Origin: an uncultured Christensenellaceae bacterium
Lineage (GTDB): Bacteria > Bacillota > Clostridia > Christensenellales > UBA3700
DNA length: 64,000 nt
Direction: 5' to 3'
Assembly (NCBI GenBank): GCA_963931165.1
Contig: OZ006985.1
Location: forward strand, 1,365,643 to 1,429,642
Program-made: the position numbers and the translations under genes
Notes under the pieces: model-generated
What the model was told of the DNA's origin: nothing
Database searches by the model: none
What the model saw: only the letters and a program-made list of their open reading frames with translations
In this document: in pieces, positions 5,325 through 43,599 of the stretch
Layout: every line of letters begins with the position of its first letter
Position numbering within the stretch: position 1 is the stretch's first letter

Positions 5325-6959
<1,635 letters not shown>

Positions 6960-7247
6960 TTATTGCTCGACGATCGCGAGCACGTCGCTCTGTTTGAGCA
7001 CGGTAACTTCTTTTTCGTCCAACTTGAAGTCGGAACCGGCATATTTGTTGTAGAGTATGACATCGCCGACCTTGACCTGCATGGTCACTTCTTTGCCGTC
7101 CACGAGACCGCCGGGACCGACCGCGATGACGCGGGCGAGCTGGGGTTTTTCCTGCGCGGACGAGGGCAGGAAGAGACCGCTTTCGGTCTTTTCGGGAGCG
7201 TCCATCGGCTCGATGACGATCCTGTCGAACAACGGTTTGATGTTCAT
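6960..7247 (-). CDS. groES: co-chaperonin GroES
   Basis: [14 protein letters not shown]...; start set to ATG 7247 (GGAGG RBS). The ORF-track start 7310 would overlap the CIRCE operator. Confidence 0.95.
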
Positions 7248-7280
7248 GATTATACCTCCGAATGATTTCGATGATTTGGT

Positions 7281-7307
7281 TTGGCAGTCAAGCCTCTCGA
7301 CTGCCAA
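7281..7307 (-). promoter_or_regulatory. CIRCE-like HrcA operator
   Basis: TTGGCAGTC-N9-GACTGCCAA is a perfect inverted repeat with the 9-nt spacer of the CIRCE consensus TTAGCACTC-N9-GAGTGCTAA. It lies between the promoter and groES. Confidence 0.75.
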
Positions 7308-7315
7308 CATTGCAT

Positions 7316-7344
7316 ATTATAACACGCCAAAGCGGGTATGTAAA
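7316..7344 (-). promoter_or_regulatory. groESL sigma-A type promoter
   Basis: Minus strand: -35 TTTACA (7344-7339), 17 nt, -10 TATAAT (7321-7316). Confidence 0.65.
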
Positions 7345-7543
7345 GACTTATATGCAACTTTTTTGCGACATTTTACCAAATTTTTTCATTTGGCGCCCCA
7401 ACTGTTAAACTACGGTGAAAAGCGCGCCGCGCGCGGCTTGCGGGCGCCGCCGAAAAAAGTGTTTTGTCGCGGCTTTTCGGTGCGTTTTGAAGTTGCTTTG
7501 CGCGCGCGTTTATGGTATCATATATACAATAGGAGTTTACCGT

Positions 7544-8002
7544 ATGAACAAATGGGATCAACGTTTTATGGATATGGCAGAGCAGGTCGCGACTTGGTCG
7601 AGCTGCTTCAAACCCGACAGGCACGTCGGCGCGGTCATCGTCAAGGACAAGCGCATCTTGACGACCGGCTACAACGGCGCGAGTAGCGGCATCAAGAGCT
7701 GCACCGAAAAGGGGGAGTGCATACGCATCAAGCTGGGCATCCCCTCGGGGACGAGGCATGAGCTGTGCTACGCCGTGCACGCCGAGCAGAACGCGATCAT
7801 TCAGGCTGCGAAGCTGGGCGTGAGCGTGGACGGCGCGACGCTGTACTGCACGCATCAGCCGTGCGTGATCTGCGCGAAGATGATCATCAACGCGGGCATC
7901 AAGCGCGTCATCTACAAGTACGGCTATCCCGATGAGTTCAGCATGCTGCTTTTCAAAGAGGCGGGGGTCGAGGTGTGCGATTTCGCGTCCCTTCAAGATT
8001 GA
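7544..8002 (+). CDS. comEB: dCMP deaminase (ComEB type, zinc-dependent)
   Basis: Start at ATG 7544 (AGGAG RBS). Motifs HAEQNAI and [13 protein letters not shown] (H-A-E / PC-x2-C). Confidence 0.85.
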
Positions 8003-8022
8003 GATAAGGTGAGGAGAAAATT

Positions 8023-11000
8023 ATGTCCGAAGAAAAGAACGTGATCTTTGTCAAAGAGGGTGCGCTCGAGCTGACATTGGAGTGCGCCGACACGATCGGC
8101 TACTACGCGCTTCAAAACGGCATCAGGCTCATCAAGCGTTTCTATCTCAAAAACACTTCCGAAAACGACATCGAGGACATCCGCATCAAGGTGACCTCAA
8201 AGCCCGACTTCATCGTGCCGTACGAGTTCGTGCAGCAGGTGATACCGCGCCGCACGACCGCGAGGTTCAACCTCGACGTCAATTGTTCGCCGACCTGCCT
8301 CGTCTCGATGGACGAGCGCACCGAGGGCGACCTTGACGTCGAGATCTTTGTCGGCGAGCAGTCGGTGATGACCGCAAGCGTCAAGACGGACATCCTCGCC
8401 TTTGACGAGTGCGACTTTGCCGCTTCGCCCGAATCGCTCGCCGCGTTCGTCAAGCGCACCGCCGAGGTCAACAAGACGGTCGCCGACGCCGAACAGCGCG
8501 CCCGCGATTGGAAGCTGACGATCTCCAAGGGCTACGGTTCGCGCAACGGTGTGCGCAACTATTTCGCCGCATGTTACAGCGTGATCGCCGAGGAGAAGTT
8601 CGTGCTTGAAGATACCCCCGGCGACGACTTCAAGGTGGTCTCGCACAAGGAGCTGTTCGAGTCGGGCATCGCGACGGGCCCCGAGCTTGCGCTGTTCATG
8701 GCTTCACTCGCCGAGAGCGAGGGACACAACGCGGTCGTCGGCAAGTTCGGCGGCAAGTGGTACGCAGGCGTATTCCTCACCGACGAGTGTTGTCCGTCCA
8801 CGGTATGGGACGACGCCGATTTTCTTGCGAAAAAGACATCTTCGGGGGTCAACGACTTCACGCTCATCTGCATGGACGACATCTCCGAAGGTTCGTCGTT
8901 CGAGAAGGCGGAACGCAACGCCAAAAACGCATTGAAGCGCGCCGACGACGGCGTGTTCATCGACGTCAAGCGCGCGCGTATCATCAACATCAAGCCGCTC
9001 CCCGAGCGCAAGCGCAGACAGGGCGGCGGATACGACCTCGAAGAGAGCCGCGATTTTGCGCCCGAATTGCGTCCGTCGCAGATACGCGAGTTCAAGGGCG
9101 CGGTCGAAGGGGACAAGGAGACGGGCAAGATCGCGCAATGGGAGCGCAAGCTGCTCGACATGGACATGCGCAACGCGCTGCTCAACTTCAAGATCTCGCG
9201 CGCGGCGGTCAAATTGCTGACGCCGTCGCTGCAAAATCTGTTTTCCGCGCTCGACCGCAACAAGACTTTCACCGTCGAGGCGGGAGCGAAAGAGGCGGAA
9301 AAGGCGGGCATAGAGCTTGCCAAGGACTTCGCCCACATCGGCTACACCAAGCCTTTCACCGACTTTGTCGGGTATGAATATTCCAACAAGCGCATGCTGT
9401 CCGTCTACGACTCCAAGGAGCACGAGGGGACGCTGTTCCGTCTCTTCCGCAAGGAGAGCAGCGTGCAGGAGGAGACGGGCACTACGTCGCTCTATCTCGC
9501 CGCCGGCTTCTTGCGCTGGAAGGAGGAGGGCGCGACCGAGTTCAAGTATGCGCCCCTCTTCCTCTTCCCGGTGAGCATGACGCGCAAGGGGCTTGCCGCG
9601 CCGACCTATACGGCGGAGGTCAACACCGACGACGTCAGGCTCAACTCCACGCTTTTGGAGTTTTTGTACCGCCAATTCAACCTCGACATCAGGGGGTTGG
9701 GGACGGTCGCTTTGAGCGGCGAGCAGAGTTATATGTCCGTGATCGCGCGCATCAAGCGCGAGACGGTGGACATGAAGGGCTGGGAGGTGTTCGGCGACGC
9801 GTTTTTGGCGAGTCTGTCGTTCGCCAACTATCAGCTTTGGTACGACATCAAATACCGCACCGAGAAATTCCGCGAACATCCGATCGTACGCTCGCTGCTC
9901 GACAACAGGCTCGAACTGCCCGAGGGCGCGTTCGACCTGTCCGACCGCAGCAGCGACGAGGCATATGTCGGGACGGAGAGGATGTATCTGCCGATATCGG
10001 CGGACTCGTCGCAATATTCGGCGATCTATGACAGTTTGAGCAAGAGCTTTGTGCTGCACGGACCTCCGGGCACCGGCAAATCGCAGACGATCACCAACAT
10101 CATCGCCAACAACATCGTCCGCGGTCGCCGCGTGCTGTTCGTCGCCGAAAAGAAGGCGGCGCTGTCCGTCGTTCACCGCAGGCTCAAATCGATAGGGCTT
10201 GCCGATTTCTGCCTCGAATTGCACTCGGGCAAGACAAACAAGACCGCGGTGCTCGGGCAGATCGTCAACACGCTCGGTCTCAAGTCGGGGACGACCGATG
10301 TCGACATCAACGAAAAACTCGACGAGATCAAGGAGAGCGTCGACGCGCTGTCGGGCGAACTCGAAGCGATGCACCGCAAGCGCTATCTCGGCATCTCGCT
10401 CTATGAGGGCATCCTCGAATATTTCGAGAATCAGGACGCGCCCGACTGTTTGAGGATAGACTCGCTGTTCTATGAAAAATTGACGGCGGAGTCCTTCCGC
10501 GGCTATTTGCAGATCCTCGGCGAACTGTCCGTGCGCGCCAAGGAGTGCGGCGACATCCAAAAGACGCCGTTCAAGCGCATCGGCGGCTTCGAATACGACG
10601 ACAAGTGGCGTGCGAGCGGCGAGCCGATACTCGAGATCGCGCTCGACCAATTGCGCAATCTGCGGGCGTGTGCGCGCAATCTTTTGCCCTATTACAGCGT
10701 GCGCACGGTGTCGCTGACCGATCAAAAGCTCAAGGCGCTGTACAAGCTGTCCAAGGGGCTGGAAAAGGAGTATGCGGCGCACTATTTCGCGCTCAAAGAC
10801 GGGGGTAAAAAGGACCTCGTCGACAACTATCTCAACCTCAGCAACAAGGCGGCGATGATGATGACCGACTACCGCTCGCGGTACGGCGCGTATCCGGCGG
10901 AAGTGCCGCAGGACGACCTCGCCGAGGCGGCTGAGGGCAAGAGCCCGTCGCGCAAATTGCGCAAGATCATGCCCGACGGCGTCGCAAAGGAGCAGAGGCA

Positions 11001-13656
11001 GTCCTTCTTCGGCTATCTCGCTCGCTGCGAGCAGACGCGCCGCATGGCGGGCAAGCTGTACAAGGAGTTGACCGCGGTTTTCGGCGCGCAGAGCGCAGAC
11101 CCCAAGACGATCGCCGAGTATTGCGACTCGATCGAGGAGCTTTACGGCGCGGCGGCGGATCTTTACGCCGACCTCGACGTCAGGGTGTTCGAGGAGAGCT
11201 GCGCGGCTTTGACCAAGTACGGTCCCAATCTGCACGGACAATATTACGTCTATGCGTACGAGAATTACGAGCGCGCGATCGCGACGTTCTGCGACGTCTA
11301 TCGCACGGACGGATGGTGCGGCGGCGCGGAGCTGGGCGCGAAGATAGAGTATCTGTCAAACATTCAAAAGAACTTCGATTACGTCCCCAATTGGTGCCGC
11401 TATCAGGAGATCGTCAAGAAGTGCCGCGAGAGCGGGCTTGAATTCGTGCTCGGACCGCTCGGCAACGGCGAGATCACCGCGCAGGACGTGCTCAGCTGCT
11501 TCAAAAAGTGCGTATATTTCAACTTTGTGCGCAGCGAACTGTTGCTCGACGAGACGCTCAGCCGTTTCTCGGGCATGTCGCTCGAAGAGACGTCCGCCAA
11601 GTTCCGCGAGCTTACGGACGAGTATGAGAGGCTGACGAGGGCGGAGATCTACAACCGTCTCGTCGCCGCGCTGCCGCGCCCCGAGGACGAGGGCGAGCAG
11701 AGCACCGAGCGCGTACTGCTGATGCGCGCCGAAAAGACGGGCATGAAGGGGATGACGCTTCGGACGCTGTTCTCCAACATACCGACGCTGCTCAAAGCGT
11801 GCTGTCCGTGCATGATGATGAGCCCGTCGTCGGTCACGCAGTTCCTCGACGTCGACCTCGACAAGTTCGATCTGGTCATCTTCGACGAGGCGTCTCAGCT
11901 GCCGACCTGCAAGGCAGTGGGAAGCATCGTGCGCGGCAAGTCGCTGATCGTCGTCGGAGACCCGCAGCAGCTGCCGCCGACCACCTTCTTCAACGCCGAC
12001 GTGCGCGACGAGGACAACTACGAGTCGGAGGACATGGAGAGCATCCTGGACGACTGCCTCGCGCTGGGCATGCCGCAAAACAGACTGCGTTGGCACTACC
12101 GTTCGCGTCACGAGAGCCTGATCGCGTTCTCCAACGCGACGTTCTACGACAACACGCTGCTCACGTTCCCGTCGCCCAACGAGCTCAACAGCAAGGTGAC
12201 CTTCCGCTATGTCGACGGCGTCTACGAGAGGGGCGGCGAAAAGTGCAACAAAAAAGAGGGCGACGAGCTTGTCACCGACGTCATCAAGCGGCTCAAAGAC
12301 CCGGTCAGGAGCAAGGAGAGCATCGGCGTCGTCACTTTCAACATCGCTCAGCAAAACTACATCGAGACCGCGCTCAACAAGCGCATCCACGAAGATGGGC
12401 TCGACTCGGCGGCGTTCGAGCGCGAAGAGCCGCTGTTCGTCAAGAACCTCGAAAACGTGCAGGGCGACGAGCGCGACGTCATTTTGTTCAGCGTCGGCTA
12501 CGGCCCCGACAAGAACGGCAAATTGTCGCTCAACTTCGGACCCATCAACCAAAACGGCGGTCAAAAGCGTCTCAATGTCGCGGTCACGCGCGCCCGTTCG
12601 GAGATGTGCGTGTTCAGCGCGATACGCGGCAACATGATCGACCTCAGCCGCACCAACAGCAAAGGCGTAGAGTGTCTCAAATACTTCCTCGAATACGCCG
12701 AGCGCGGCAAGGATATGCTGGCGATCAGCAACACCGACATCGGCAGGACGGACGAGGGCATCGGGCAGCAGCTTGCGCGCGAGCTCAAAGACAGAGGCAT
12801 CGCGTGTGAGAGCAACGTCGGCGTGTCCGACTTCAAGATCGACGTCGCGATCGTCGATCCGCGCAATCCCGACCGCTACATCCTCGCGGTGCTCGCCGAC
12901 AGCGAGAACGACCTCAAATTCAAGGGCGTACGCGACCGTGTGACGATGCACTCGCGCATATTGCGCAGGCTCGGTTGGAATACTTACCATGTCTGGTGCG
13001 TAAATTACTTCAACAACCCCAAGCGCGAGATACAGCGCATCAAGGACGCGGTGTCTGCGCTGGCGGAAAAGCGCGCGCTGGGCAAAAAGGCGATACGCGA
13101 CATCGTCGCAAAATACAAAGAGCCGTACAAGACGTACGCGGTCAAGCCGGCGGCGAAGGCGTCGGGCGCGGACTATGTGCTCAATCCGGCGAGCAAGGAC
13201 AAGATCGTCGAGAAGATACGCGCGATCATCGAGCGCGAATCGCCGATCGAACAGCGCACGTTGCTCGCGCGGCTGTGCGCGCAGTTCGGCGTGCCGGCGA
13301 CCGCGAAGAGAGCGATCGCGCAATTGACCGCCTATACGGACACGTTTGTGTCGTTCCGCAAAGAGGTCGAGGACAGGGTGTTCTTTGCCGACAAACCGGT
13401 CGAGACCTTCCGTCCGTCCGACGCAAAGAATGTCCGCGACATCGCGCGCATGCATCCCGACGAGATCTTCGCTGCGATCAAGTGTGCGCTCGAGTGCGGA
13501 GGTAAGCTCAGCCGCGACGACGCAGTCAAAGAGGCGGCAAATCTGCTCGGCGGAAAGAAGACGAAGGCGGCGCTCGATTGGATAACCTTTGTGCTCGACG
13601 GCGCGATCGCCGAAAAGAGGGTGATCGTCAATGTCGAAGGTATGCTGTCCGTTTGA
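8023..13656 (+). CDS. 1877-aa DUF4011 / Upf1-like SF1 helicase / Vsr(MTES)-like endonuclease fold / DUF3320-like protein
   Basis: WERKLLDMDMRNALLNF and LYLAAGFLRW (DUF4011-like). Walker A GPPGTGKSQT, DEASQ, VVGDPQQLPPT, YRSRHESLI, QGDERDV, NVAVTRAR. Then DFKIDVAIVDP...RLGWNTYHVW and a helical tail. Starts 20 nt after comEB with a GGTGAGGAG RBS. Confidence 0.85.
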   Translation: MSEEKNVIFVKEGALELTLECADTIGYYALQNGIRLIKRFYLKNTSENDIEDIRIKVTSKPDFIVPYEFVQQVIPRRTTARFNLDVNCSPTCLVSMDERTEGDLDVEIFVGEQSVMTASVKTDILAFDECDFAASPESLAAFVKRTAEVNKTVADAEQRARDWKLTISKGYGSRNGVRNYFAACYSVIAEEKFVLEDTPGDDFKVVSHKELFESGIATGPELALFMASLAESEGHNAVVGKFGGKWYAGVFLTDECCPSTVWDDADFLAKKTSSGVNDFTLICMDDISEGSSFEKAERNAKNALKRADDGVFIDVKRARIINIKPLPERKRRQGGGYDLEESRDFAPELRPSQIREFKGAVEGDKETGKIAQWERKLLDMDMRNALLNFKISRAAVKLLTPSLQNLFSALDRNKTFTVEAGAKEAEKAGIELAKDFAHIGYTKPFTDFVGYEYSNKRMLSVYDSKEHEGTLFRLFRKESSVQEETGTTSLYLAAGFLRWKEEGATEFKYAPLFLFPVSMTRKGLAAPTYTAEVNTDDVRLNSTLLEFLYRQFNLDIRGLGTVALSGEQSYMSVIARIKRETVDMKGWEVFGDAFLASLSFANYQLWYDIKYRTEKFREHPIVRSLLDNRLELPEGAFDLSDRSSDEAYVGTERMYLPISADSSQYSAIYDSLSKSFVLHGPPGTGKSQTITNIIANNIVRGRRVLFVAEKKAALSVVHRRLKSIGLADFCLELHSGKTNKTAVLGQIVNTLGLKSGTTDVDINEKLDEIKESVDALSGELEAMHRKRYLGISLYEGILEYFENQDAPDCLRIDSLFYEKLTAESFRGYLQILGELSVRAKECGDIQKTPFKRIGGFEYDDKWRASGEPILEIALDQLRNLRACARNLLPYYSVRTVSLTDQKLKALYKLSKGLEKEYAAHYFALKDGGKKDLVDNYLNLSNKAAMMMTDYRSRYGAYPAEVPQDDLAEAAEGKSPSRKLRKIMPDGVAKEQRQSFFGYLARCEQTRRMAGKLYKELTAVFGAQSADPKTIAEYCDSIEELYGAAADLYADLDVRVFEESCAALTKYGPNLHGQYYVYAYENYERAIATFCDVYRTDGWCGGAELGAKIEYLSNIQKNFDYVPNWCRYQEIVKKCRESGLEFVLGPLGNGEITAQDVLSCFKKCVYFNFVRSELLLDETLSRFSGMSLEETSAKFRELTDEYERLTRAEIYNRLVAALPRPEDEGEQSTERVLLMRAEKTGMKGMTLRTLFSNIPTLLKACCPCMMMSPSSVTQFLDVDLDKFDLVIFDEASQLPTCKAVGSIVRGKSLIVVGDPQQLPPTTFFNADVRDEDNYESEDMESILDDCLALGMPQNRLRWHYRSRHESLIAFSNATFYDNTLLTFPSPNELNSKVTFRYVDGVYERGGEKCNKKEGDELVTDVIKRLKDPVRSKESIGVVTFNIAQQNYIETALNKRIHEDGLDSAAFEREEPLFVKNLENVQGDERDVILFSVGYGPDKNGKLSLNFGPINQNGGQKRLNVAVTRARSEMCVFSAIRGNMIDLSRTNSKGVECLKYFLEYAERGKDMLAISNTDIGRTDEGIGQQLARELKDRGIACESNVGVSDFKIDVAIVDPRNPDRYILAVLADSENDLKFKGVRDRVTMHSRILRRLGWNTYHVWCVNYFNNPKREIQRIKDAVSALAEKRALGKKAIRDIVAKYKEPYKTYAVKPAAKASGADYVLNPASKDKIVEKIRAIIERESPIEQRTLLARLCAQFGVPATAKRAIAQLTAYTDTFVSFRKEVEDRVFFADKPVETFRPSDAKNVRDIARMHPDEIFAAIKCALECGGKLSRDDAVKEAANLLGGKKTKAALDWITFVLDGAIAEKRVIVNVEGMLSV

Positions 13657-13685
13657 TTGACAGGCGGGCGCGCGTCTGCTAAACT
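13657..13685 (+). promoter_or_regulatory. sigma-A type promoter upstream of the M50 protease gene
   Basis: -35 TTGACA (13657-13662), 17 nt, -10 TAAACT (13680-13685). Confidence 0.45.
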
Positions 13686-19754: not shown

Positions 19755-20966
19755 ATGAAAAACGCACTTCGCATCACGCTGTGTCTCTCGCTCTGCTTCG
19801 CGTGCGTATTCACGGCGGCGGCATGTCAAAACAACAGCGTCGAACCCGCGCCCGTTCTCAATGGTTTCGACACGACTTTGCCCGATCTTTCGGGGCTTTC
19901 GACGCACAAATACTTTTTCGGCTATGACGAGGGCGTCGACGGCGACCGCGCCGCGGTCGAGGCTAAGCTCGCCGCGGACGGCATAGCCGCGACCAAGTAC
20001 GGGTGGTATCCCACTCTGATCGACAACTTCGACTACAACGCAGACTATGCGGACAACATGGGGCTGGATCCCGAGATCTGGACGTCGTCCGTTCACGGCG
20101 TGCGCTGGGCGTCGCAGGACGACAAACATCCCGAGTACGCGTGCTATTGGTGTCCGGAGATGGTCTCGGTCAGCGCGGACGGTCACGCGGTGATACGTTC
20201 CGAGTACATCGCCGGCCACGACTGCGAGGTCTGCAACGCCAACGCCGCCTATTTCGGCGGCAGCGGCGCGGGGAGATATACCGGCGGCTTTGAGACGCGC
20301 GTCGAGACGCCGCTCACCGACGATGACGGCAACGTGCTCTACAATGAGTCCAACGATCGTCCGCAGACGGACTACAAGCAGGACGAATATCTGTTCCGTC
20401 AGGCGTACGGCTACTACGAGACGAGGATACGTCTGCCGCGCAAGGAGGGGATGTGGTCGGCATTCTGGCTGCAATCGTCCTATCAGCGCATGGTGGACGG
20501 CAGCGGGGAGGACGGCACCGAGATCGACGTCTACGAATCGGCGTTTTTGACGGGCAACGACGACAGCCACCGCATGGGGCACGCGCTGCTTTGGGACGGC
20601 TACGCCGAGGGCGCGCAGGTGTCGTCGCTCGTGTTCGACCTCGGCGACAACGACCTCTACGACGGCGAGTTCCACACGTTCGCGCTGCTTTGGACGCCCG
20701 AGTATTATGTGTTCTACGTTGACGGCAAGCCCAATTGGGCGACCTCGGACGGCGGAGTCGCAAAGGTGCGCGAGTTCCTGCGCTTCACCTGTGAGATCGA
20801 CGCCGGCGACGAGTGGGGACCGCACGGACAGAAGATAGGCGCGTTCGACCATGACGGCGGAGTGGGGCTGATGGAGATAGATTACGTCCGCGTCTATCAA
20901 AATCTCAATTGGCTGGATGACATAGAGGACGACAGCGGAGAGGGAGAATATTCGCCTCAAAATTGA
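19755..20966 (+). CDS. GH16 family beta-glucanase lipoprotein
   Basis: Lipobox FTAAAC in the signal peptide; GH16 catalytic EIDVYE (GTEIDVYES); WSAFWLQS. Confidence 0.8.
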   Translation: MKNALRITLCLSLCFACVFTAAACQNNSVEPAPVLNGFDTTLPDLSGLSTHKYFFGYDEGVDGDRAAVEAKLAADGIAATKYGWYPTLIDNFDYNADYADNMGLDPEIWTSSVHGVRWASQDDKHPEYACYWCPEMVSVSADGHAVIRSEYIAGHDCEVCNANAAYFGGSGAGRYTGGFETRVETPLTDDDGNVLYNESNDRPQTDYKQDEYLFRQAYGYYETRIRLPRKEGMWSAFWLQSSYQRMVDGSGEDGTEIDVYESAFLTGNDDSHRMGHALLWDGYAEGAQVSSLVFDLGDNDLYDGEFHTFALLWTPEYYVFYVDGKPNWATSDGGVAKVREFLRFTCEIDAGDEWGPHGQKIGAFDHDGGVGLMEIDYVRVYQNLNWLDDIEDDSGEGEYSPQN

Positions 20967-21054: not shown

Positions 21055-24000
21055 GTGGTCTATGCGATCTTGGCATTGCTTGTATTGATATTCGTGACGC
21101 TTGCGGCGTATGCGCTCGCGTCGCCGGGGCGGAAAAGGGGACGGAGTTTCGGAGAACTGACCCCTGCGGCTGTGGACGAACTCGCGCTTGAACTTCGGGC
21201 CACCGTCGCGGGCGGCGCAGCTCCGTCGCGGGCGACTTACGCGTTTGCGGCTGCGCGCGCCTACCGCCGCATAGTCGCAGCCGACAGAGCGGGGATCGCG
21301 CTCGAGGAGTGCGAAAAGGTGTTTGCGGAAAAATATCACACGCTCCGCGCGCGGCTCAACCGAGGTTTCGGTGCGCTCGCCGCGCTTCCGCATACAGACG
21401 GAGAGGCGAGGATATTTACGCTCGCAACGGCGATATTGTCGTCGGCGGAGCTGTGTTCCGATGCGGATAAATTGCAAAAGACGCTTTTGAGATTCGTCTC
21501 CCGCACTCCGCTCGATCATGCCGAAGTCGTCGCGCTGCCTCTCGCGATAGAGGCGGCAGGCATGCGGCTCTGGGCGGACGTCGCGCGCAGGCTCGTCGTA
21601 CTTTCAAAGTCGCGCGAGGCGGCTCAAAGCGACGTCGTGCCCGACAGGCGCAGGGCGAAAAAGGACGGCTATGTCTACTACTTCGTCAAGAGCGGCAAGC
21701 GCGTCGATCCGCGCTATGCCGAGGGCAGGGAGTTCGATCGCGGCGGCGCGTGCGTCGCGTTTGCCGCCGAGACCGCGGGCTATGCCGAAAAGACGGAGCG
21801 GATACTCGCGCTTTTGACGACCTCTCGCGAGGCGCTCGACGCAGAGTTTTCGGCGTCGATATGTCCCGGAGCGGCGGCAGCGGCTCGGGACGCGGCGTTT
21901 GCGGCTACGGACGTCGGCTCAAAGCTCGCCTATTTCGCCGCCGCGGCGACGATCGCAAGCCGTTTGGGGACTTCCGAACGCGCGGTGATCGAGGCGGCTG
22001 TCGCGCTCGGAGAGGACAGGGGCGTACATTTCGGGACCTATCTGTTCGAGAGGCACGACCTGCTCAGGGCGAAGCTGCTCGGCAAACGCCCCAAAAGGTC
22101 GCATGCGGGCAGAAACACTGTTTTGTTTGCCTCGGCGGTGTTCTGTTCGAGCGCCGCACTCGGCGCTCTCGCGGCGGTGTTTTCGGGAGGAGTCGCCGCT
22201 GCGGTCGCGGTCGCGATATGCTGTTTTTTCGCCTTTTTTCCCGTCTGCGATCGGGCGGCGCGCGTCGTTGCCGCCAGGCTGTGCATACGCCGTCCATGTC
22301 CTCGGCTGACCTGTCCGCGCGACGAGTCCTGCCGCACCGAATTGGTGATGCCCGTCTTTCTCAAAGGCGAAAAAGAGGCGAGGCAGGTCGCCGATCGATT
22401 GCTTTCGATCGCCGCGGTCAACGATCGCGAGTTTTGTTCCTATCTGCTGCTTTGCGACTTTGCGCCGTCCGACGCGGAGTGGGATGGCAGCGACGACGGC
22501 TTGCTCTCCGTCCTTGAAGAATATGAGAAAAGGGGGTTGAAGATCGCGGTGCGCCGACGCGTGAGGGAGAGGGGAAGATGGCGCGCCCGCGACCGCAAGA
22601 GAGGCGCGATCGCCGACTACAACGCCGCGAGAATGAGCGGCTGCGACGGCGCGTTCGTAAAGTTGTCTCCCTCGGACGGCAGGGTGAGGTATGTCATCGT
22701 CGTCGACGAGGACGACCTGCTCGCGCCGGGGGCTGTCGGAGAGGCGATGGACGCGCTCCGTCATCCGCTCGCGGCGAAGTACGACCTGCTCGCGTTCGGC
22801 GCTTATGCGGACGGCGGCAGGGCGCGCACCGCGTATGCGCTCGACAATTCGGGCGGAGGAGTCGCCTATGCCGGACACTCGGACATATTTTTCGATCTTG
22901 CGGGCACAGCGGTGTTTTGCGGCAAGGGGATATATCGCCTCGACAACTTTGCGCGAAAGACTGCGGCGTTGGAGGGCAAACGATTGCTCAGTCACGACAT
23001 CGCCGAGGGCGCGGTGATGAATACCGGCGCGGCGGACGTCGCCGTCTCCGAGATCCCTCCCGAATGCCCGAGTGCGGACGCGGCGAGAGCGGCGAGGTGG
23101 CGGAGAGGGGATCTGATGCTGCTGCCGCTGCTCGGCGGCACGGTCAAAGATCGCGCCTACGCCTACGTCATCCTGTCCAACGCGATCGCGGCGCTCGCGC
23201 CGATAGCGGCGTTTGCGCTGGTCGCGGCGTTTTTCGCGACGGGGAGCGCGGTGCTCGGGATAGCGGCTGCGCTTGCGGTGTTTGCGTCTCCAGCTGCTCG
23301 AATAGCCGAGAGCGCGCTGACGTCAAAGGGCAGGCGAGCGGCGGCGGTGCTGTGCGAGGCGGCGCGGACGGTCGTCGGCGCGATGATCGATCTCGCGCTG
23401 CTGCCCATGCGCGCGGCAAATTGCGCGTTGACCGCGCTGTCGACCGCGCTCTTCGCGCTCTTTGCTCCGCACAGGCTGTGCGAATGGAAGACGTTCGCTT
23501 CGTCGGAGAGTGAGAGCGCGGCGGCGTTTGCCCGCGTCGCGCTCCCCGGGGCGGTGCTTGCGGCGGTGTTCGCGGCGGTGTTTTGGCGCGGCTTCGCTTT
23601 TTCGATGTGGGCGGCGGCATATCTCGCGGCAGCGGCGGCGATGTTTTCGCGCGCGTTCGTCCCGACCGCGACCGTCCGCAAAGCGAACGAAAGAGACGAG
23701 CGCAGATTGAGGAAGTACGTCGCAAGGACATATGAGTATTTCAAGGCGCTCGACGGCTTTTTGCCCTGCGACAACATCCAGATCTATCCGCCGGTCGGAC
23801 ACAGCGCGACCGTGTCGCCGACAGATCTCGGCTTTTGGCTGATCGCCGACGTCTGCGCGGCAAAGTGCGGATTGATCGCCGAGGACGAGGCGTACGCAAA
23901 GGTTGTCTCAAAGCTGACGCGCGTCGTCGGTCTGCCCAAGCGGAGCGGGCATCTCTACAATTGGTATCGCCGTGACGGCAGCGTCGCTCCGCCCAAATAC

Positions 24001-27000
24001 GTCTCCTTCGTCGACAGCGGCAACTTTGTCGCCTGCGCGGAGACGGTGCGCGCATTTTGCGCGGCGATGGGCGGCGAAGAGGGCGAACGGCTTGCCGCCG
24101 AGCTCGTCGAAGGGGCGGATTTTGAGGTGTTTGCCGACAAGAAGAGGGGACTTTTCGTGCGCGGTATCGACGCGCGAACGGGCGCCGCGGACGGGCATTA
24201 CGACCTGCTCGCGTCCGAGGCGCGGCTCGCGGTCGCGATAGCGTGCGCGCGGACATGTTCGTCTCGCGAGTGGACGTCGCTTGACGCAAGTCGGCTCGGC
24301 GCGCTGATGCCGGCGCTCGCGTCGTGGTCGGGGACGGCGTTCGAGTACCTGATGCCCGAGCTGTTCGTCACTGCGCCGACGGGGAGCGAACTTTGCCGTT
24401 CGGCGCGCCGTGCGCTGTTCAAGATGAGGCGGGTGCGCTGCCACGGCTTTTGGGGGATCAGCGAGAGCGGCTACTTCGCGTTCGACAAGCAGGGCAACTA
24501 TCAATACCGCGCGCACGGAATAGATGCGCTTGCGCTGTCGGGAGAGGGCAAACACAAAGTGATCGCGCCCTACGCCTCCGCGCTCGCCGCGACGATCTCG
24601 CCGCACGCCGCCGCAGCCGAACTGTCGCGGCTCGAAGACGCCGGCTATCTGGGGCGGCTCGGCTTTTACGAGGCGATAGACTTCTCTTGCGGCGAAAACG
24701 TCGTCTATTCTCACATGACCCACCACCAGGGGATGATCTTGGCGGCGCTGACCGAGGCGCTCGCGCCGGGGGCGATCAAATCGCTGTTCGCCGCATCGCC
24801 TCGCTTTGCGGCGATCGCAATGTTGATGTCCGCGCCCAAGAGCGACTGCAAAGCGGTCGCACGGATGAGGCAGCGCTTTGTCTCCTGCCGCGGGGCGGCG
24901 GACTACCGGCTCGAGCGCACGCCGTCCGAAATGCCGTCCGCGTGGGCGGCGAGCGGCGGGGAATACCGCGTAATGCTCGACGAGCGCGGCTGCGGCTTCG
25001 CGCAATTTTGCGAAGCGAGGATAGATGTCTTTCACGGCTGTCCCGAGAGCGACGAGGGTGCGTTCGGCGTCTTTATCGACGGCGAAGACGTCGTCTCGCC
25101 GACATATGCGCCGCTGCGCAAAGACCGCGGCGCAAAAGCCGTTTTCACGCCTTACGGCGCACATTACGAGTCGGGTGCGTGCACTCTCGACGTGACCGTC
25201 CCGACGGGGATAGGCGGCGAGGTGCGGAGCTATCGCGTCCGCAACGACGGCGCAAGTGCGAGGGAGTATCTGTTCGTGTTTTGCCGCCGGGTCGCGCTGA
25301 TCGCGGACGGAGACTACCTCGCACATCCGGCGTTCAACGACATGTTCGTCGAGACCGAATACTCGGACGGCGAGAGGGTGCTGACCGCGCGCCGAGTGCC
25401 GCGCGAGGGAACGGGCGGAATGTATGCCGCGCTCAAAATAGAGGGCGGCGCGGACGTCGTGCCCGACTGCGATTTCAGACATTTTCGCGATCTGTCCGAG
25501 GGTAAATACGCAAGGTGCACCGGCTTAGGGCGTACGCTTGCGCCGTGCATGGGGTTTTCGTGCAAGGTGACCGTCCCTCCCGGCGAAGAGGCGGAGGTCA
25601 AATTGACGTTGCTGTGCGCGCACGACAGGCAGTCTTTGGACTCCAAGCTGAGTGCGCTCGGCGAGGGTGCGAAACTGTCCGAGACGCGCGATCGAGGCGC
25701 GTTGTCCAAATACGTCGAAGGGGAGCGCGGCGCGGAGATCTTTTCCGACCTTGCGGCGAGGTTGGTATTTTTGCCCATGCCGTCCAAGGCGGTGAGGGCG
25801 CGTATGTCCGCGCGCGGACGCTCCGCCGAGATCGAGGAAGGCAAGCGCACCGTCATCGTCAAATACGGCGGCACACCCGACTTTGCCGCATACGTCAAGG
25901 CATGCACCGCCTGCGCGCTGGCGGGAGCGGACTTTTTGATGTGCGTGCTGTACAGAGAAGAGGACACATACGCCGCGCCGATACGGCGTGCTCTGATCGA
26001 AGAGAGCGGCATCTCCGACCTTGAAAGGCTGTCGTTCGTCAGGCTGATAGATGTGTCTGCGGACGGCGAGACGGAGCGCGGGCTGATCGCGGGCGCGTGC
26101 GTTGTAGCCGGCGAAGTGTACGCCGAGACGTTCTTGTCGGGCATGACGGCTGTCAAGTTGCCTACGCTCGGGCGGCGCGAACGCGCACCGCTCACGCCAT
26201 GCGGCGCGGGAGGCTTCGATCCGTCGGGCGATTACGTCGTCGAGCGCCGCCCCAAAAAGCCGTATTCAAATGTGATAGATCTGCCGCGCGGCGGAGCGGT
26301 CGTCACCGAGACGGGCGGCGGCTTTCGCTGGTCGGGAAGCGCCTATTTCGGCAAGCTGAACGCATGGTTCAACGACGCCGCGCTCGATCCGCCGTGCGAA
26401 GAGCTGTTTGCGCTCTCGGGCGGCGGTGCGGTGAGGATAAACAGGCTTTGTGAGGGCGGATATGTCAAGCATTCGCCCGGTGCGACGGTGTTTTGCTCGC
26501 GCGTGGACGACGTCGATTGGGATGTCAAGACATGCGTGTTCGCCGATGGCAAAATGACCGCGACATTGGTGCGCGCGGTCTCGGCGGATGAGCGCTCCAA
26601 GAACGCGTATTGGCGGATGTTGCCTTCGCTCGCTCCGCATGACGGAAGGGCGTTTTGCGCATGCGCGGCGAGGGACGGCGTCATAGAGGCGTTCAATTGC
26701 GCGACGGGCGAGAAGATGTATTTCGCGTGCGTCGGCGCAAAGTTCAAGTGCTCGACCGACGCCGGGGCGTCGCGGCTGTCGCATGGGCTGAGTCTCGGCG
26801 CAAAGACGCCCTATCCCGCCGCGGCGTTCGAGATAGAGACCGAAAGAGAGCGCGAGAGCGTGTTTGCGGTCGTAATGAGCGCGGACGAAGAGGCGTTGAG
26901 GGCGCTGACGCTCGGCGACGTGTCGAGCGGCTGTCGTGGGACGGAGGAGTTTTTCCGCTCGCTCAACGCAGTGACGGTCGACAGCGGAGAGCGGCTTTTC

Positions 27001-28416
27001 GACGACTTTTTCAACCGCTGGCTGTGCACGCAGTTGTATTCGTCGCGGCTGTTCGGCAGATGCGGCTACTATCAGGCGGGCGGCGCGATAGGCGCGCGCG
27101 ACATCTTGCAGGACGCGCTCGCGATAATTCCGACCGATCCCGAGAGGGCGAAGAGCGTCTTTCTCGACGTGTGTGCGCATCAATATCTCGAAGGGGACGT
27201 GATGCATTGGTGGCATCCTCCGCGAACAGGGGTGAGGACGAGGATATCGGACGACAAGCTGTTTTTGCCGCTGTTCGCCGCGCGGTGGGTGGCGGTGACG
27301 GGAGACGCGTCGCTACTCGAAGAGCGCGTTCCCTATTTGAGTTCGCCTCCGCTCGTAGGGATCGCCGAGGCGAGGTACGAAACGCCCAAGCCGAGCAAAG
27401 AGGGTACGGTGCAAGAGCATTGCGAAAGGGCGATCGAAAACGCGCTTGCGCGGAAGGGGGAGCACGGATTGCTTAAAATAGGGTGCGGAGACTGGAACGA
27501 CGCGCTCAACGCGATCGGCACGCGCGATAGGGGCGAAAGCGTATGGCTGACGATGTTCGCGGTGCGCGTATTGCGCGATTTTGCGGCGGCGGTGGGCTAC
27601 GAAAAGGGGCAGCGCCATCTCAAAGAGGCGGAATCGCTCGCTGCGGCGGCGGCAAAGACTTTCGACGGCGAAAAGTTCGCGAGGGCATTCACCGACGACG
27701 GCGTATGGCTGGGGACGGGCGAGGGCAATTGCGCTCTCGATCTCATCTGTCAGGCATGGGCGCAGCTTGCAAAGATAGGCGACGAAGATATGCGCCGCCG
27801 CGCGCTTGACAGCGCCGCAAAGCTGTACGATAAAGAGTTCGGGCTCGTCAAGCTGTTCGATCCGCCCTTCGAGCCGAGTGACCGCGTCGGCTATATCGGC
27901 GCCTATCCCAAAGGCGTGCGTGAAAACGGCGGACAATACACGCACGCGGCTGTCTGGTATTTGATCGCGCTGTTCGACTCCGGCAGATATGACGAAGCAA
28001 AGCGGCTGATGTTCGACATCTGTCCGTCGACGGCGGCGGCAAGATACGGGGATATACGCGGGGGCGAGCCTTACGTCGTCGCCGCGGACGTCTATTCCGC
28101 CGAGGGCAGGCGCGGCGAGAGCGGCTGGACGTGGTACACCGGCAGCGCGGGCTGGCTGTACACCGCGATCGTCGAGAAAGCGCTCGGCATCACGATGTCG
28201 CGGGGGCTGGTGCGCATAGGTAAACCGCGCGGTTTTGATGCGCAAAGACTCAAAGTGACGTTGAAGATCGGCGGTACGACCTACAAGATCTCATATCAAA
28301 GAGGGGACGGCGACTATATCCGCTCGGGAGAGTTGAACTATCTCAACTGCACCGAGTTTCGTCCGGACGGGAAAAGGGACGAGGTAGAACTTGTCAGGGT
28401 ATACCGCGGCGACTGA
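21055..28416 (+). CDS. cyclic beta-1,2-glucan synthase-like protein (TM + GT84-like + GH94-like), 2453 aa
   Basis: GTG start after GGAGGTG. Multi-TM N-terminus. LLSHDIAEG and RWRRGD (GT84-like). SPTDLGFW, YNWY, VDSGN, AFEYLMPELF, GISESGYFAFD. C-terminal HWWHP, GDWNDALN, GGQYTHAAVW and WYTGSAGW are typical of GH94 phosphorylase domains. Confidence 0.8.
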   Translation: MVYAILALLVLIFVTLAAYALASPGRKRGRSFGELTPAAVDELALELRATVAGGAAPSRATYAFAAARAYRRIVAADRAGIALEECEKVFAEKYHTLRARLNRGFGALAALPHTDGEARIFTLATAILSSAELCSDADKLQKTLLRFVSRTPLDHAEVVALPLAIEAAGMRLWADVARRLVVLSKSREAAQSDVVPDRRRAKKDGYVYYFVKSGKRVDPRYAEGREFDRGGACVAFAAETAGYAEKTERILALLTTSREALDAEFSASICPGAAAAARDAAFAATDVGSKLAYFAAAATIASRLGTSERAVIEAAVALGEDRGVHFGTYLFERHDLLRAKLLGKRPKRSHAGRNTVLFASAVFCSSAALGALAAVFSGGVAAAVAVAICCFFAFFPVCDRAARVVAARLCIRRPCPRLTCPRDESCRTELVMPVFLKGEKEARQVADRLLSIAAVNDREFCSYLLLCDFAPSDAEWDGSDDGLLSVLEEYEKRGLKIAVRRRVRERGRWRARDRKRGAIADYNAARMSGCDGAFVKLSPSDGRVRYVIVVDEDDLLAPGAVGEAMDALRHPLAAKYDLLAFGAYADGGRARTAYALDNSGGGVAYAGHSDIFFDLAGTAVFCGKGIYRLDNFARKTAALEGKRLLSHDIAEGAVMNTGAADVAVSEIPPECPSADAARAARWRRGDLMLLPLLGGTVKDRAYAYVILSNAIAALAPIAAFALVAAFFATGSAVLGIAAALAVFASPAARIAESALTSKGRRAAAVLCEAARTVVGAMIDLALLPMRAANCALTALSTALFALFAPHRLCEWKTFASSESESAAAFARVALPGAVLAAVFAAVFWRGFAFSMWAAAYLAAAAAMFSRAFVPTATVRKANERDERRLRKYVARTYEYFKALDGFLPCDNIQIYPPVGHSATVSPTDLGFWLIADVCAAKCGLIAEDEAYAKVVSKLTRVVGLPKRSGHLYNWYRRDGSVAPPKYVSFVDSGNFVACAETVRAFCAAMGGEEGERLAAELVEGADFEVFADKKRGLFVRGIDARTGAADGHYDLLASEARLAVAIACARTCSSREWTSLDASRLGALMPALASWSGTAFEYLMPELFVTAPTGSELCRSARRALFKMRRVRCHGFWGISESGYFAFDKQGNYQYRAHGIDALALSGEGKHKVIAPYASALAATISPHAAAAELSRLEDAGYLGRLGFYEAIDFSCGENVVYSHMTHHQGMILAALTEALAPGAIKSLFAASPRFAAIAMLMSAPKSDCKAVARMRQRFVSCRGAADYRLERTPSEMPSAWAASGGEYRVMLDERGCGFAQFCEARIDVFHGCPESDEGAFGVFIDGEDVVSPTYAPLRKDRGAKAVFTPYGAHYESGACTLDVTVPTGIGGEVRSYRVRNDGASAREYLFVFCRRVALIADGDYLAHPAFNDMFVETEYSDGERVLTARRVPREGTGGMYAALKIEGGADVVPDCDFRHFRDLSEGKYARCTGLGRTLAPCMGFSCKVTVPPGEEAEVKLTLLCAHDRQSLDSKLSALGEGAKLSETRDRGALSKYVEGERGAEIFSDLAARLVFLPMPSKAVRARMSARGRSAEIEEGKRTVIVKYGGTPDFAAYVKACTACALAGADFLMCVLYREEDTYAAPIRRALIEESGISDLERLSFVRLIDVSADGETERGLIAGACVVAGEVYAETFLSGMTAVKLPTLGRRERAPLTPCGAGGFDPSGDYVVERRPKKPYSNVIDLPRGGAVVTETGGGFRWSGSAYFGKLNAWFNDAALDPPCEELFALSGGGAVRINRLCEGGYVKHSPGATVFCSRVDDVDWDVKTCVFADGKMTATLVRAVSADERSKNAYWRMLPSLAPHDGRAFCACAARDGVIEAFNCATGEKMYFACVGAKFKCSTDAGASRLSHGLSLGAKTPYPAAAFEIETERERESVFAVVMSADEEALRALTLGDVSSGCRGTEEFFRSLNAVTVDSGERLFDDFFNRWLCTQLYSSRLFGRCGYYQAGGAIGARDILQDALAIIPTDPERAKSVFLDVCAHQYLEGDVMHWWHPPRTGVRTRISDDKLFLPLFAARWVAVTGDASLLEERVPYLSSPPLVGIAEARYETPKPSKEGTVQEHCERAIENALARKGEHGLLKIGCGDWNDALNAIGTRDRGESVWLTMFAVRVLRDFAAAVGYEKGQRHLKEAESLAAAAAKTFDGEKFARAFTDDGVWLGTGEGNCALDLICQAWAQLAKIGDEDMRRRALDSAAKLYDKEFGLVKLFDPPFEPSDRVGYIGAYPKGVRENGGQYTHAAVWYLIALFDSGRYDEAKRLMFDICPSTAAARYGDIRGGEPYVVAADVYSAEGRRGESGWTWYTGSAGWLYTAIVEKALGITMSRGLVRIGKPRGFDAQRLKVTLKIGGTTYKISYQRGDGDYIRSGELNYLNCTEFRPDGKRDEVELVRVYRGD

Positions 28417-33279: not shown

Positions 33280-35175
33280 ATGCGCAATATTTCCCACATC
33301 ACACTGAAAGGAAGGCTATCTGCGGCAATGCTGCTGATAGCCCTTCTTTTTTGCGCCCTTTCGGGCAGATTGTTCTATTTGCAGGCGATAGAGGGCGAGA
33401 GTTTGACAGACAGGGCGTTCGGGCAGTGGACGCGCGGACTTCCGATGCGCGCCGCAAGAGGCGAGATCGTCACTTCTGACGGAGTGACTTTGGCTTCGTC
33501 GTATGACGTGTTCACCGTCTATGTCCGTCCCGTCGAGACGGAAAACGTCGAAGAGACGGCGCGCGCGATCGCCGAGACTTGCGGAGCGGAGTACGAGCGC
33601 ATTTTGGCAAAGATAGACAAGACGGGAGTGTCCGAAGTGCGCGCCTTGACGGGCGCGAGCGAGGCACAGGCGCTTGCATTGAGGTCGAAAGGCATAGCGG
33701 GCGTATATGTCGTCGCGGACAGCGCGCGTTATTACGACATGGGCAATTTCGCCACACAATTGCTGGGTTTTGTCAATGCGGACGGCGTCGGACAGAGCGG
33801 CGTCGAGATGTATTACGATCGCTATCTCAAAGGGACGGACGGCGAGGCGTACACCGAGACGGACCTGATCGGCGACAAGCTGGAAGGTTCGCACACTTCA
33901 TATCTGTCGCCGATCGACGGGGCGACGCTGACGTTGACGATCGATTTCACTTTGCAGAGCCTTGCCGAAAAGGCGGTGCGTGACGCGGTCGAAAAGTATT
34001 CTCCGCTGTCGGCGAGCTGTCTGATGATGGACGCGGACACGGGCGAGATCTTGGCGATGGCGGGCGCGCCGACATACGATCTCAACGACCTGCCGCGAGA
34101 CGATCTCGCGCTGTTGTTGCAAGGGGCGAAAAACACTTTGGTCGTCGACGTCTACGAGCCGGGCTCGACGTTCAAGATACTGACCGCGGCGATGGGGATC
34201 GAGGAGGGGCTGATCCGCGATTCGTACTATTGCCCCGGCTATCGCGTCGTCGACGGCACGCGGATACGCTGTTGGCGGAGCATAGGGCACGGCAGTCAGG
34301 ACTTTGCTCACGGCATCATGAACTCGTGCAACTGCGTGTTCATGGACATCGCGCTGAGCGCGGGGACGGAGACGACGTACGACTATCTCGAAAAGTTCGG
34401 GGTTGGTTCGCGCACGGGCGTCGATCTGCCCGGCGAGGGCGCGGGGATACTGCTGTCCGAGGAGTCGGTCAAGTCGGTCGATCTGGCGAGGATAGGCTTT
34501 GGGCAGGCGGTCGCGGCTACGCCGATAGGGCTTGCGACGGCGGTGTGTTCGGTGCTCAACGGCGGCAAATTGCTCACGCCGTATGTTCTGTCGTCGGTGA
34601 CGACCGCTGACGGCGCGCACGCTCTCGACAATTCGCCGACGATCAAAGGGGCGACTGTGTCCGAGACGACTTCGGCGAAGATGAAAGAATATCTCTATTC
34701 GGTCGTCGAGGAAGGTGGCGGCAAAAACGCGTATGTGCCCGGCTATCGCGTCGGCGGCAAGACGGGCACCGCGCAGAAATACGAAAACGGCTCGATCGCA
34801 CGCGGCAAGTACGTCTCGTCCTTTGTCGGGTTCACCGAGCTCGGCGGTCGCACCGTCGTGTGTCTGTTCAAGGTGGACGAGCCGCAGGGGTACGTCTATT
34901 ACGGCAGCATAGTCGCCGCGCCGTATGTGGGGCGCATCTTTTCGGGCGCGTTCGCGGCGTTCGGGGTCGAGCCGGACTATGCAGAAAACGAGATCCCCGC
35001 GACCGCCGAGATGCCGAGGCTTTTCGGGCTGTCGCTGACGCAGGCGGCGTCCGCAGTCAAAGCGGCGGGGCTTCAATACGAGTTTTCGGGCGATGGGGAG
35101 AGCGTGATCTCGCAATTCCCTGTCGAGGGCACGAGCCTGTACGAGGGCGCGGTCATACACTTCGAGCTGGGCTGA
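33280..35175 (+). CDS. class B penicillin-binding protein (FtsI/SpoVD type) with C-terminal PASTA
   Basis: PGSTFKI (SxxK), NSCN (SxN), GGKTGTA (KTG). PASTA-like MPRLFGLSLTQAASAVKAAGLQYEF. Confidence 0.9.
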   Translation: MRNISHITLKGRLSAAMLLIALLFCALSGRLFYLQAIEGESLTDRAFGQWTRGLPMRAARGEIVTSDGVTLASSYDVFTVYVRPVETENVEETARAIAETCGAEYERILAKIDKTGVSEVRALTGASEAQALALRSKGIAGVYVVADSARYYDMGNFATQLLGFVNADGVGQSGVEMYYDRYLKGTDGEAYTETDLIGDKLEGSHTSYLSPIDGATLTLTIDFTLQSLAEKAVRDAVEKYSPLSASCLMMDADTGEILAMAGAPTYDLNDLPRDDLALLLQGAKNTLVVDVYEPGSTFKILTAAMGIEEGLIRDSYYCPGYRVVDGTRIRCWRSIGHGSQDFAHGIMNSCNCVFMDIALSAGTETTYDYLEKFGVGSRTGVDLPGEGAGILLSEESVKSVDLARIGFGQAVAATPIGLATAVCSVLNGGKLLTPYVLSSVTTADGAHALDNSPTIKGATVSETTSAKMKEYLYSVVEEGGGKNAYVPGYRVGGKTGTAQKYENGSIARGKYVSSFVGFTELGGRTVVCLFKVDEPQGYVYYGSIVAAPYVGRIFSGAFAAFGVEPDYAENEIPATAEMPRLFGLSLTQAASAVKAAGLQYEFSGDGESVISQFPVEGTSLYEGAVIHFELG

Positions 35176-35330
35176 AAATCGCCGCTTTTCGCAAAATTAC
35201 GCGCTCGGTCGCGCGCAAGCCGGCAGTGCGGCGGTGCGAAAATGCGCAAATAGGCGCGAAGTCGGTCGAAGATCGCCTTTGCGCGCCGCTCAACGCCGCG
35301 AGGGTCTAAAATTACGAGGCAGGAGGAATT

Positions 35331-40229: not shown

Positions 40230-40296
40230 GCGCGAATTTTCGCCGTTCGGCATACATTGTATTAGTGATTCGTCCCTCGGACGACAGGAGACAACG

Positions 40297-41547: not shown

Positions 41548-41551
41548 AGTT

Positions 41552-42340: not shown

Positions 42341-42436
42341 GCGCCGCACAAAACCTCTTTTCACGATCCGTTCGTCGCACGGGCGCAACATATGCGCATA
42401 TGCGCATAATAAATATTAAAATATTTAATTAAATTA

Positions 42437-42465: not shown

Positions 42466-42471
42466 TGAACT

Positions 42472-43593: not shown

Positions 43594-43599
43594 ACAGAT

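Follow-up and report, generated by a model that had tools for sequence, protein, structure and literature searches.

Whether a ComEB-type deaminase gene and the very long helicase gene directly behind it make up an anti-phage module is the question raised by a locus of an uncultured Christensenellaceae bacterium (GenBank assembly GCA_963931165.1, contig OZ006985.1, positions 1,365,643 to 1,429,642). The whole of this stretch of 64,000 nucleotides (nt) was analyzed and is referred to as the window; all coordinates are those of the window. A preliminary description had proposed a helicase-nuclease surveillance or defence protein contained in a single polypeptide and possibly co-expressed with the deaminase. 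Judged by its sequence, the product of the giant open reading frame (ORF) is a divergent branch of the already catalogued ProA/PDC-S37 family, which is related to Hhe, and we consider it probable that it is a ProA-family surveillance helicase to which the deaminase is unrelated. The two genes and their spacer are as follows.

7544-8002, plus strand: dCMP (ComEB-type) deaminase gene; ATG at 7544, TGA at 8000-8002; 152 amino acids (aa)
8003-8022, plus strand: spacer of 20 nt between the deaminase gene and the giant ORF; carries the Shine-Dalgarno-like AGGTGAGGAG and no terminator-like hairpin
8023-13656, plus strand: giant ORF encoding a ProA-like (DUF4011 family) Upf1-type superfamily 1 (SF1) helicase with a Vsr-fold nuclease-like domain; ATG at 8023, stop at 13654-13656; 1877 aa

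The assignment of the giant protein is carried by two models. NCBIfam NF058533 (the equivalog "anti-phage protein ProA") aligns in one collinear stretch with residues 29-1845, at model positions 4-1902 of 1903, and the hidden Markov model (HMM) PDLC05009 of PDC-S37, a PADLOC candidate for a single-gene phage defence system, matches residues 369-1851 at model positions 9-1522 of 1550 (983.6 bits, E=5.5e-296). The domain order is that of ProA/PDC-S37, with an N-terminal module, DUF4011, a split SF1 helicase, REase_MTES_1575 and a tail; the window protein differs in belonging to a separate Clostridial clade, ~30-40% identical to the high-scoring ProA proteins. On the ProA model the latter reach 2201 bits (Dysgonomonas, L033), 2216 bits (Paenibacillus, L047) and 2147 bits (Acetobacter, L055), and the scores are 1584 bits for L008 of the Clostridial sister clade and 1449 bits for L001, the closest locus outside the lineage of the window. 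In a neighbour-joining tree all Clostridial proteins formed one clade, with Bacteroidota, other Bacillota and Proteobacteria in separate groups. The family has a patchy distribution among phyla, and for the most part its tree agrees with taxonomy; the few misplaced taxa suggest occasional transfer. Of the single-polypeptide defence module that had been proposed, the architecture stands, the family being catalogued as such (ProA, PDC-S37, Hhe-related), but the defence role of the giant protein is taken from family labels only.

The 1877-aa protein is divided into the following parts.

8023-9072, plus strand: N-terminal module, residues 1-350; Ig-like beta-sandwich (~1-130) and alpha/beta domain (~135-345) in the AlphaFold model
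9148-9666, plus strand: DUF4011, residues 376-548; Pfam PF13195, E=1.1e-31, full-length model match
10024-10206, plus strand: start of helicase domain 1A; Pfam AAA_19/AAA_30, residues 663-720; Walker A GPPGTGKSQT at nt 10060-10089
10210-11832, plus strand: insertion of ~540 aa between helicase motifs I and II; no Pfam match, covered by the ProA model
11848-12618, plus strand: helicase motifs II-VI; Pfam AAA_11 (PF13086), residues 1276-1322, and AAA_12 (PF13087), residues 1340-1532
12766-13050, plus strand: REase_MTES_1575 (Vsr-type) nuclease-fold domain, residues 1582-1676; Pfam PF18741
13090-13653, plus strand: C-terminal tail, residues ~1690-1877; weak DUF3320 (winged-helix) match at residues 1721-1757

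The gene coordinates, the gap of 20 nt and a ribosome binding site belonging to the giant ORF itself had all been given in the preliminary description and are correct, and the same is true of most of the domains that it had read from the translation. Its DUF4011-like region corresponds to the PF13195 match, and its Vsr/MTES-type segment to REase_MTES_1575, which scores 67.6 bits with a Pfam cutoff of 38.2. The complete helicase motif set is also present: GPPGTGKSQT (residues 680-689), DEASQ (1288-1292), GDPQQLPPT (1312-1320), YRSRHESL (1359-1366), QGDERDV (1480-1486) and VAVTRAR (1519-1525) are all invariant across a 13-sequence alignment of homologues that are 35-82% identical, as is the Walker A region as a whole (residues 680-692). 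With Walker A, Walker B and motifs III-VI intact the protein qualifies as an Upf1-like SF1 helicase, and a search of the PDB returned only motor domains, those of IGHMBP2, Sen1 and Upf1, as its solved relatives. Resemblance to these eukaryotic Upf1-like SF1B proteins is limited to the motor with its motif set, while the other domains, size and biology differ. The ~540-aa insertion that splits the motor is conserved within the ProA branch, and DUF4011 was modelled by AlphaFold with a predicted local distance difference test score (pLDDT) of about 80-90. The DUF3320-like tail could be upheld in part: a match to PF11784 is present, but at 20.1 bits it stays below the threshold of 25. DUF3320 is known to overlap winged helix-turn-helix (wHTH) domains (PMC3710099), and the tail is probably a winged helix.

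The N-terminal 350 residues were modelled with high confidence (pLDDT 94.3, predicted template modelling score 0.90). In Foldseek searches only the sandwich gave good matches, for instance to protein 4.2, factor XIII and RhoGDI, with a root-mean-square deviation (rmsd) of 3-5 Å over ~115-120 residues. An exhaustive search of 1.84 billion representatives found 757 clusters matching the module, nearly always at the N-terminus of proteins of ~1.9 kaa; the module is therefore peculiar to this family rather than a promiscuous sensor domain. It is presumed to be a sensing or partner-binding part. Proteins of the MTES_1575 type (Anantharaman et al., 2013; PMC3710099) share REase_MTES_1575, the SF1 helicase and the wHTH/DUF3320 tail with the window protein, but the HEPN domain was not detected in the latter. 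They have also been described with a transglutaminase-like N-terminal domain (PMC3710099), which could not be confirmed here: across Foldseek searches of the PDB with two AlphaFold models, TG2 aligned poorly to the module (probability 0.33-0.6, rmsd 17-19 Å), with a probability of 0.54 and an rmsd of 17 Å in the comparison made for this domain.

The nuclease-fold domain was aligned across 84 family members, the alignment spanning window positions 12829-12996 and the nuclease domains of L001-L089. Proteobacterial and planctomycete members, among them L050, L055 and a Klebsiella plasmid copy (L089), show the canonical pattern RID...G(I/V)ECDGAxYHS...ARDRD...LGW..R(I/V/L)WS. The window protein instead reads KID...VLADSENDLKF...VRDRV...LGWNTYHVW, so that two Asp and the D-R pair are kept, while other residues stand in place of the conserved Glu and His and of the last Asp. 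Set against the conserved REase_MTES_1575 residues (D ... E-x-D-G ... H ... R-D-R-D) it has KID ... L-A-D-S ... L ... R-D-R-V. The conserved Glu, His and Asp positions presumably correspond to the catalytic residues of Vsr. Glu and His are also lost in most members from Bacteroidota and Bacillota, including proteins with more than 2100 bits on the ProA model, and their loss therefore characterizes a large part of the ProA branch and not the window gene alone; the additional loss of the last acidic residue (RDRV) sets the window protein apart from ProA. Within the Clostridial clade the domain is strongly conserved and so should be functional in some way. A search of the PDB with the nuclease domain gave no sequence match even at E=10.

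Hhe (HheA), a DUF4011 helicase with a Vsr endonuclease, is said to be the single-gene system of Gao et al. from 2020. Like the window protein, it unites DUF4011, an SF1 helicase of the Upf1-like kind and a nuclease of the Vsr type within a single polypeptide. The N-terminal half and the insertion of the latter, however, match the ProA model rather than Hhe, and canonical members keep ECDG..YH in the nuclease, which the window protein lacks. The NCBIfam model for Hhe (NF042953) reached 685 bits with a cutoff of 2000, on which score Hhe identity was rejected, and PADLOC PDLC02194 reached 479 bits; the matches lie chiefly in the C-terminal third. Both models give two matched stretches, for which coordinates are those of the best stretch only (residues 1097-1686 for NF042953), starting at about residue 1097-1114. 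A likeness to Mokosh, which had also been suggested, stops at the generic helicase core, the one part that the MkoA and MkoC models match (94 and 81 bits, against 984 for PDC-S37), and a Pfam scan of the giant protein detected neither a phospholipase D (PLD) nuclease nor any other Mokosh-specific part. Mokosh identity was likewise rejected.

The upstream gene encodes a protein with HAE and PCxxC zinc motifs (Pfam dCMP_cyt_deam_1, E=1e-27), whose best solved relatives are the dCMP deaminases 2HVV, 4P9C, 1VQ2 and 2W4L from S. mutans, cyanophage, T4 and human. It shares with ComEB the fold of zinc-dependent dCMP deaminases, the length of ~150 aa and the motifs, but here it is not part of a comE operon, and tblastn detected no comEC anywhere in the 64-kb window. 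Its description as an ordinary ComEB is thus right as regards a generic dCMP deaminase, but the ComEB model TIGR02571 gives 111.8 bits, below the equivalog cutoff of 219.45. Models for anti-phage dCTP deaminases (NF041025 and PDLC02373) match the catalytic part only, at model positions 337-391 of 437 and 433-507 of 630, respectively, and the window protein is without their additional domain. With 82.9 bits on NF041025, where the cutoff is 400, partial coverage and a length of 152 aa, identity with an anti-phage dCTP deaminase was rejected. Homologues 75-87% identical to the deaminase occur across very many Clostridia assemblies, and the orthologues of the two closest relatives are 93% and 92% identical. 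On these comparisons the gene is best regarded as the host's housekeeping dCMP deaminase, which belongs with groES. The elements that flank the pair are the following.

5325-6947, minus strand: groEL; Pfam Cpn60
6960-7310, minus strand: groES; Pfam Cpn10; divergent from the deaminase gene, of which it is the conserved anchor
13657-13685, plus strand: promoter-like site TTGACA-17-TAAACT, TG-extended, from a consensus scan; directly after the stop codon of the giant ORF

The consensus scan found no terminator-like site on the plus strand between the deaminase gene and the giant ORF, and the next promoter-like element lies at 13657, both as described before; this site presumably serves the M50 peptidase-scpA-scpB genes downstream. 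As there is no terminator-like hairpin in 8003-8022, read-through from the promoter of the deaminase is plausible, and with it co-transcription of the two genes. In the intergenic region between groES and the deaminase gene (7310-7543) a strong promoter-like site for groES, TTTACA-17-TATAAT, was seen at 7344-7316 on the minus strand, together with a GC-rich palindromic stretch at ~7420-7450. No CIRCE operator was matched upstream of groES with up to three mismatches allowed.

Comparison with other genomes gives no support to a two-gene system. In L081 and L082, where the giant orthologues are 88% and 82% identical, the order of divergent groES, deaminase, giant gene, M50 peptidase, scpA and scpB is the same, with spacers of 19 nt and 24 nt between deaminase and giant gene. 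Outside of this genus-level lineage, to which the adjacency of the giant gene and the groES-deaminase pair is confined, 80 species-level homologue loci from Clostridia, Bacteroidota, Paenibacillus, Planctomycetota, Acetobacter and Methanospirillum were searched by tblastn for the window's deaminase, GroES, GroEL, M50 peptidase, ScpA and ScpB; none was found within 10 kb of the helicase gene (0/80). Conversely, three other lineages (L086-88, L093-94 and L095-96) have the divergent groEL-groES and deaminase genes, the deaminases being 85-87% identical to that of the window, but they lack the helicase, and different genes follow downstream. Outside the immediate lineage the giant protein reaches ~60% identity at most and is much less conserved than the deaminase with its 75-87% across Clostridia. 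The absence of the adjacency from the 80 loci, together with a groES-deaminase pair that is kept without the helicase, shows that the deaminase belongs to the groES neighbourhood while the helicase gene varies. The functional pairing envisaged in the preliminary description is accordingly not supported, and all these comparisons show the deaminase to be independent of the helicase.

The rest of the window is of a housekeeping nature. Upstream lie NAPRT, a DivIVA-like gene and groESL, and downstream follow the M50 peptidase gene, scpAB, a D-Ala-D-Ala carboxypeptidase gene and rluB, in agreement with the housekeeping flanks (groEL/groES upstream, M50 peptidase-scpA-scpB downstream) that had been noted before. 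Further downstream lies a cluster of division and cell wall (dcw) genes:

33280-44997: dcw cluster with PBP transpeptidase, two Mur ligases (murE/F), FtsW/RodA, a MurA-like EPSP-synthase-fold enzyme and FtsZ

Together groESL, scpAB and the dcw cluster confirm that the whole window is core chromosome. Neighbours of the family elsewhere were surveyed in a census of the 141 nearest ORFs from 59 non-redundant homologous loci, a rough test based on simple ORF calls and the nearest one or two ORFs at each locus. Neither this census nor the context of the window showed neighbours enriched in defence or mobile genes, and the idea of a defence-island setting was dropped. DUF2130 (PADLOC "mad3") in 3/59 loci and reverse transcriptases in two or three (L074, L078, L079 and others) were the only recurrent defence-like neighbours.

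At the other loci of the window's sub-clade the giant gene is found between chromate transporters and ybaK/rubrerythrin, or beside metF-metH. The identities of the window's genes with L081 and L082, respectively, are 77% and 79% for the M50 peptidase, 78% and 75% for ScpA and 82% and 81% for ScpB, compared with 88% and 82% for the giant protein. When L008 is compared with the sister-clade species other than L009, which forms the closest pair with it, the giant protein is 49-60% identical, HolA 38-46%, CdaA 39-51% and ComEC 30-41% in most pairs. In this sister sub-clade, comEC-holA-cdaA directly follow a ProA-like gene in 15 or more Clostridia species (L008-L054, e.g., L008:5993-16075), and in the window the giant gene lies directly downstream of the ComEB-type deaminase gene (7544-13656). 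In B. subtilis comEA, comEB, comEC and holA are neighbours. The comEC and ComEB-type neighbours could go back to an ancestral location within the comE region or could be coincidental; in the comEC-linked loci a deaminase was not found.

Taken as a ProA-family surveillance helicase, the giant protein would work as a single polypeptide in which the N-terminal module and DUF4011 are joined to an insertion-split Upf1-type SF1 motor and then to a nuclease-like domain of Vsr fold that bears a winged-helix tail. The motor would translocate on nucleic acid at the expense of ATP, and the C-terminal nuclease-fold/wHTH part would engage DNA. By analogy with the family label and with Hhe, the trigger may be DNA metabolism of an abnormal or foreign kind (phage replication or recombination intermediates, for instance) and not a sequence motif; for Hhe, which is a single helicase-nuclease gene, a phage gene-essentiality screen pointed to several T7 class II DNA-metabolism genes as candidate triggers (PMC11482910). 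With the conserved Glu and His gone from the nuclease motif, the domain may cut weakly, in an altered way or not at all, and it may be the motor that produces the effect. The deaminase gene would at most be co-transcribed with the giant gene by read-through.

A number of points weigh against this interpretation. The ProA score of the giant protein, 1419.5 bits, falls slightly short of the curated cutoff of 1500, the motif of its nuclease domain is degenerate, and no primary publication on ProA was found in the searchable literature, so that "anti-phage" rests on database labels; the same literature yielded no experimental data on ProA, no paper on PDC-S37 and few papers mentioning DUF4011, none of them mechanistic. 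The giant gene sits in the core chromosome, where no tRNA, convincing flanking repeats or GC shift was found around it. In the census no Pfam or PADLOC family recurred more than three times, most neighbours being transporters, tRNA synthetases and ribosomal proteins. In the sister sub-clade the order UvrD-like helicase - (HAD) - giant gene - comEC - holA - cdaA is kept in 15 species or more, where the giant protein is more conserved than the products of comEC, holA and cdaA; taking both sub-clades, it is at least as conserved as its housekeeping neighbours. What had been named beforehand as grounds for giving up a defence role, namely syntenic core-like homologues, no island enrichment and an adjacency that is not conserved, is largely what we see in this clade. 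A housekeeping role agrees with the chromosomal setting, synteny, conservation and degenerate motif no less well than immunity does. In such a case this would be a domesticated branch, a core genome-maintenance helicase of Christensenellales-like Clostridia that is not primarily immune, which might resolve replication/transcription conflicts or R-loops or process incoming transforming DNA and use its nuclease fold for DNA binding only. We regard this as possible though rather unlikely. It is favored by the long-range synteny with housekeeping genes in two sub-clades, by conservation equal to or above that of the neighbours (88% and 82%, as against 78% and 75% for ScpA), by the single clade of the Clostridial sequences, by the lack of mobile-element or defence neighbours, by a nuclease domain that stays highly conserved while Glu and His are lost, and by the position beside comEC in one clade and beside a ComEB-type deaminase here. 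A DUF4011 gene of P. aeruginosa is likewise core and present in every isolate (PMC10250203). However, the degenerate motif does not mark a special branch, as it is also found in proteins of Bacteroidota and Paenibacillus whose scores greatly exceed the ProA cutoff. The position of the gene also varies by lineage and three lineages have no such gene beside groES-deaminase, which fits an accessory gene, and single-gene defence systems that are fixed in the chromosome do exist.

The two remaining explanations keep the defence role and alter its parts. In a two-gene operon the deaminase would deplete or alter the nucleotide pool and act with the helicase-nuclease as one system; the 20-nt spacing without terminator, kept in two orthologous loci, and the matches of the deaminase domain to the PADLOC dCTPase and NCBIfam anti-phage dCTP deaminase models speak for it. 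These matches are nevertheless confined to the catalytic part and far below cutoff (82.9 versus 400), the protein is a typical dCMP deaminase of 150 aa, no deaminase is near any of the 80 other helicase loci, and the deaminase is kept with groES in lineages which have no helicase. This possibility seems largely refuted by the comparative data, and we hold it to be highly improbable. Equally hard to credit is a Mokosh-like or RNA-directed system in which the Upf1-type motor would act on phage RNA and not DNA. The closest solved cores, IGHMBP2, Sen1 and Upf1, are indeed RNA or RNA/DNA helicases and the MkoA and MkoC models match weakly, but only the helicase core matches Mokosh (94 and 81 versus 984 bits for PDC-S37), no PLD nuclease or other Mokosh-specific part was detected, and the effector-like domain has a Vsr/restriction-endonuclease fold with wHTH, that is, DNA-binding modules.

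Mobile relatives of the giant protein are found elsewhere. Homologues ~32% identical are present on 468 plasmids, mainly of Klebsiella (242) and Ralstonia (105). The one plasmid example inspected, p397-1 of Klebsiella quasipneumoniae (NZ_CP155712.1; L089), carries a 1963-aa homologue with the canonical nuclease motif. On its flanks are transposase genes (IS110, IS5 and IS3) and a gene for the toxin YafO, a mobile and defence-like environment that differs from the Clostridial loci. One homologue lies on a short fecal contig labelled "Bacteriophage sp.". When the DNA of the Klebsiella plasmid homologue was used as query, no match was obtained in all complete E. coli genomes. The ProA-like family as a whole therefore moves, while its Clostridial branch behaves as a vertically inherited gene under purifying selection.

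Apart from this locus, three other genes in the window deserve mention:

19755-20966: GH16 gene preceding the 2453-aa GH94 ORF
21055-28416, plus strand: 2453-aa ORF with GH94 catalytic, GH94 supersandwich and glycoamylase domains
53662-54879, plus strand: 405-aa ORF with double zinc-ribbon motifs and DUF6693 and DUF898 segments

The related contig L082 has the same pair of GH16 gene and 2453-aa GH94 ORF.

Since PADLOC and NCBIfam already include the family, the present result contributes little as a defence-gene call. Its meaning lies rather in the finding that a family labelled "anti-phage" acts throughout an order of gut Clostridia as a core gene would, with conserved synteny and strong purifying selection, and that its nuclease motif has there lost residues which are conserved in the proteobacterial members. 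Much of this "helicase-nuclease" family may thus not be a canonical nuclease. The locus cautions against reading HMM-based defence labels as function, and shows that tight spacing with a plausible "defence-like" neighbour, in this case the deaminase, can be purely positional. Given the comEC-holA neighbours in one sub-clade and the ComEB-type deaminase and scpAB here, a housekeeping role with incoming or replicating DNA is possible; that the ProA/DUF4011 branch of gut Clostridia has turned into a vertically inherited, core-like gene which may handle such DNA, besides or instead of restricting phage, is a speculative suggestion that we put forward with considerable doubt. The orthologues assembled here provide a set with which it can be tested whether DUF4011 helicases have a cellular role, a question that the core DUF4011 gene of P. 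aeruginosa poses as well.

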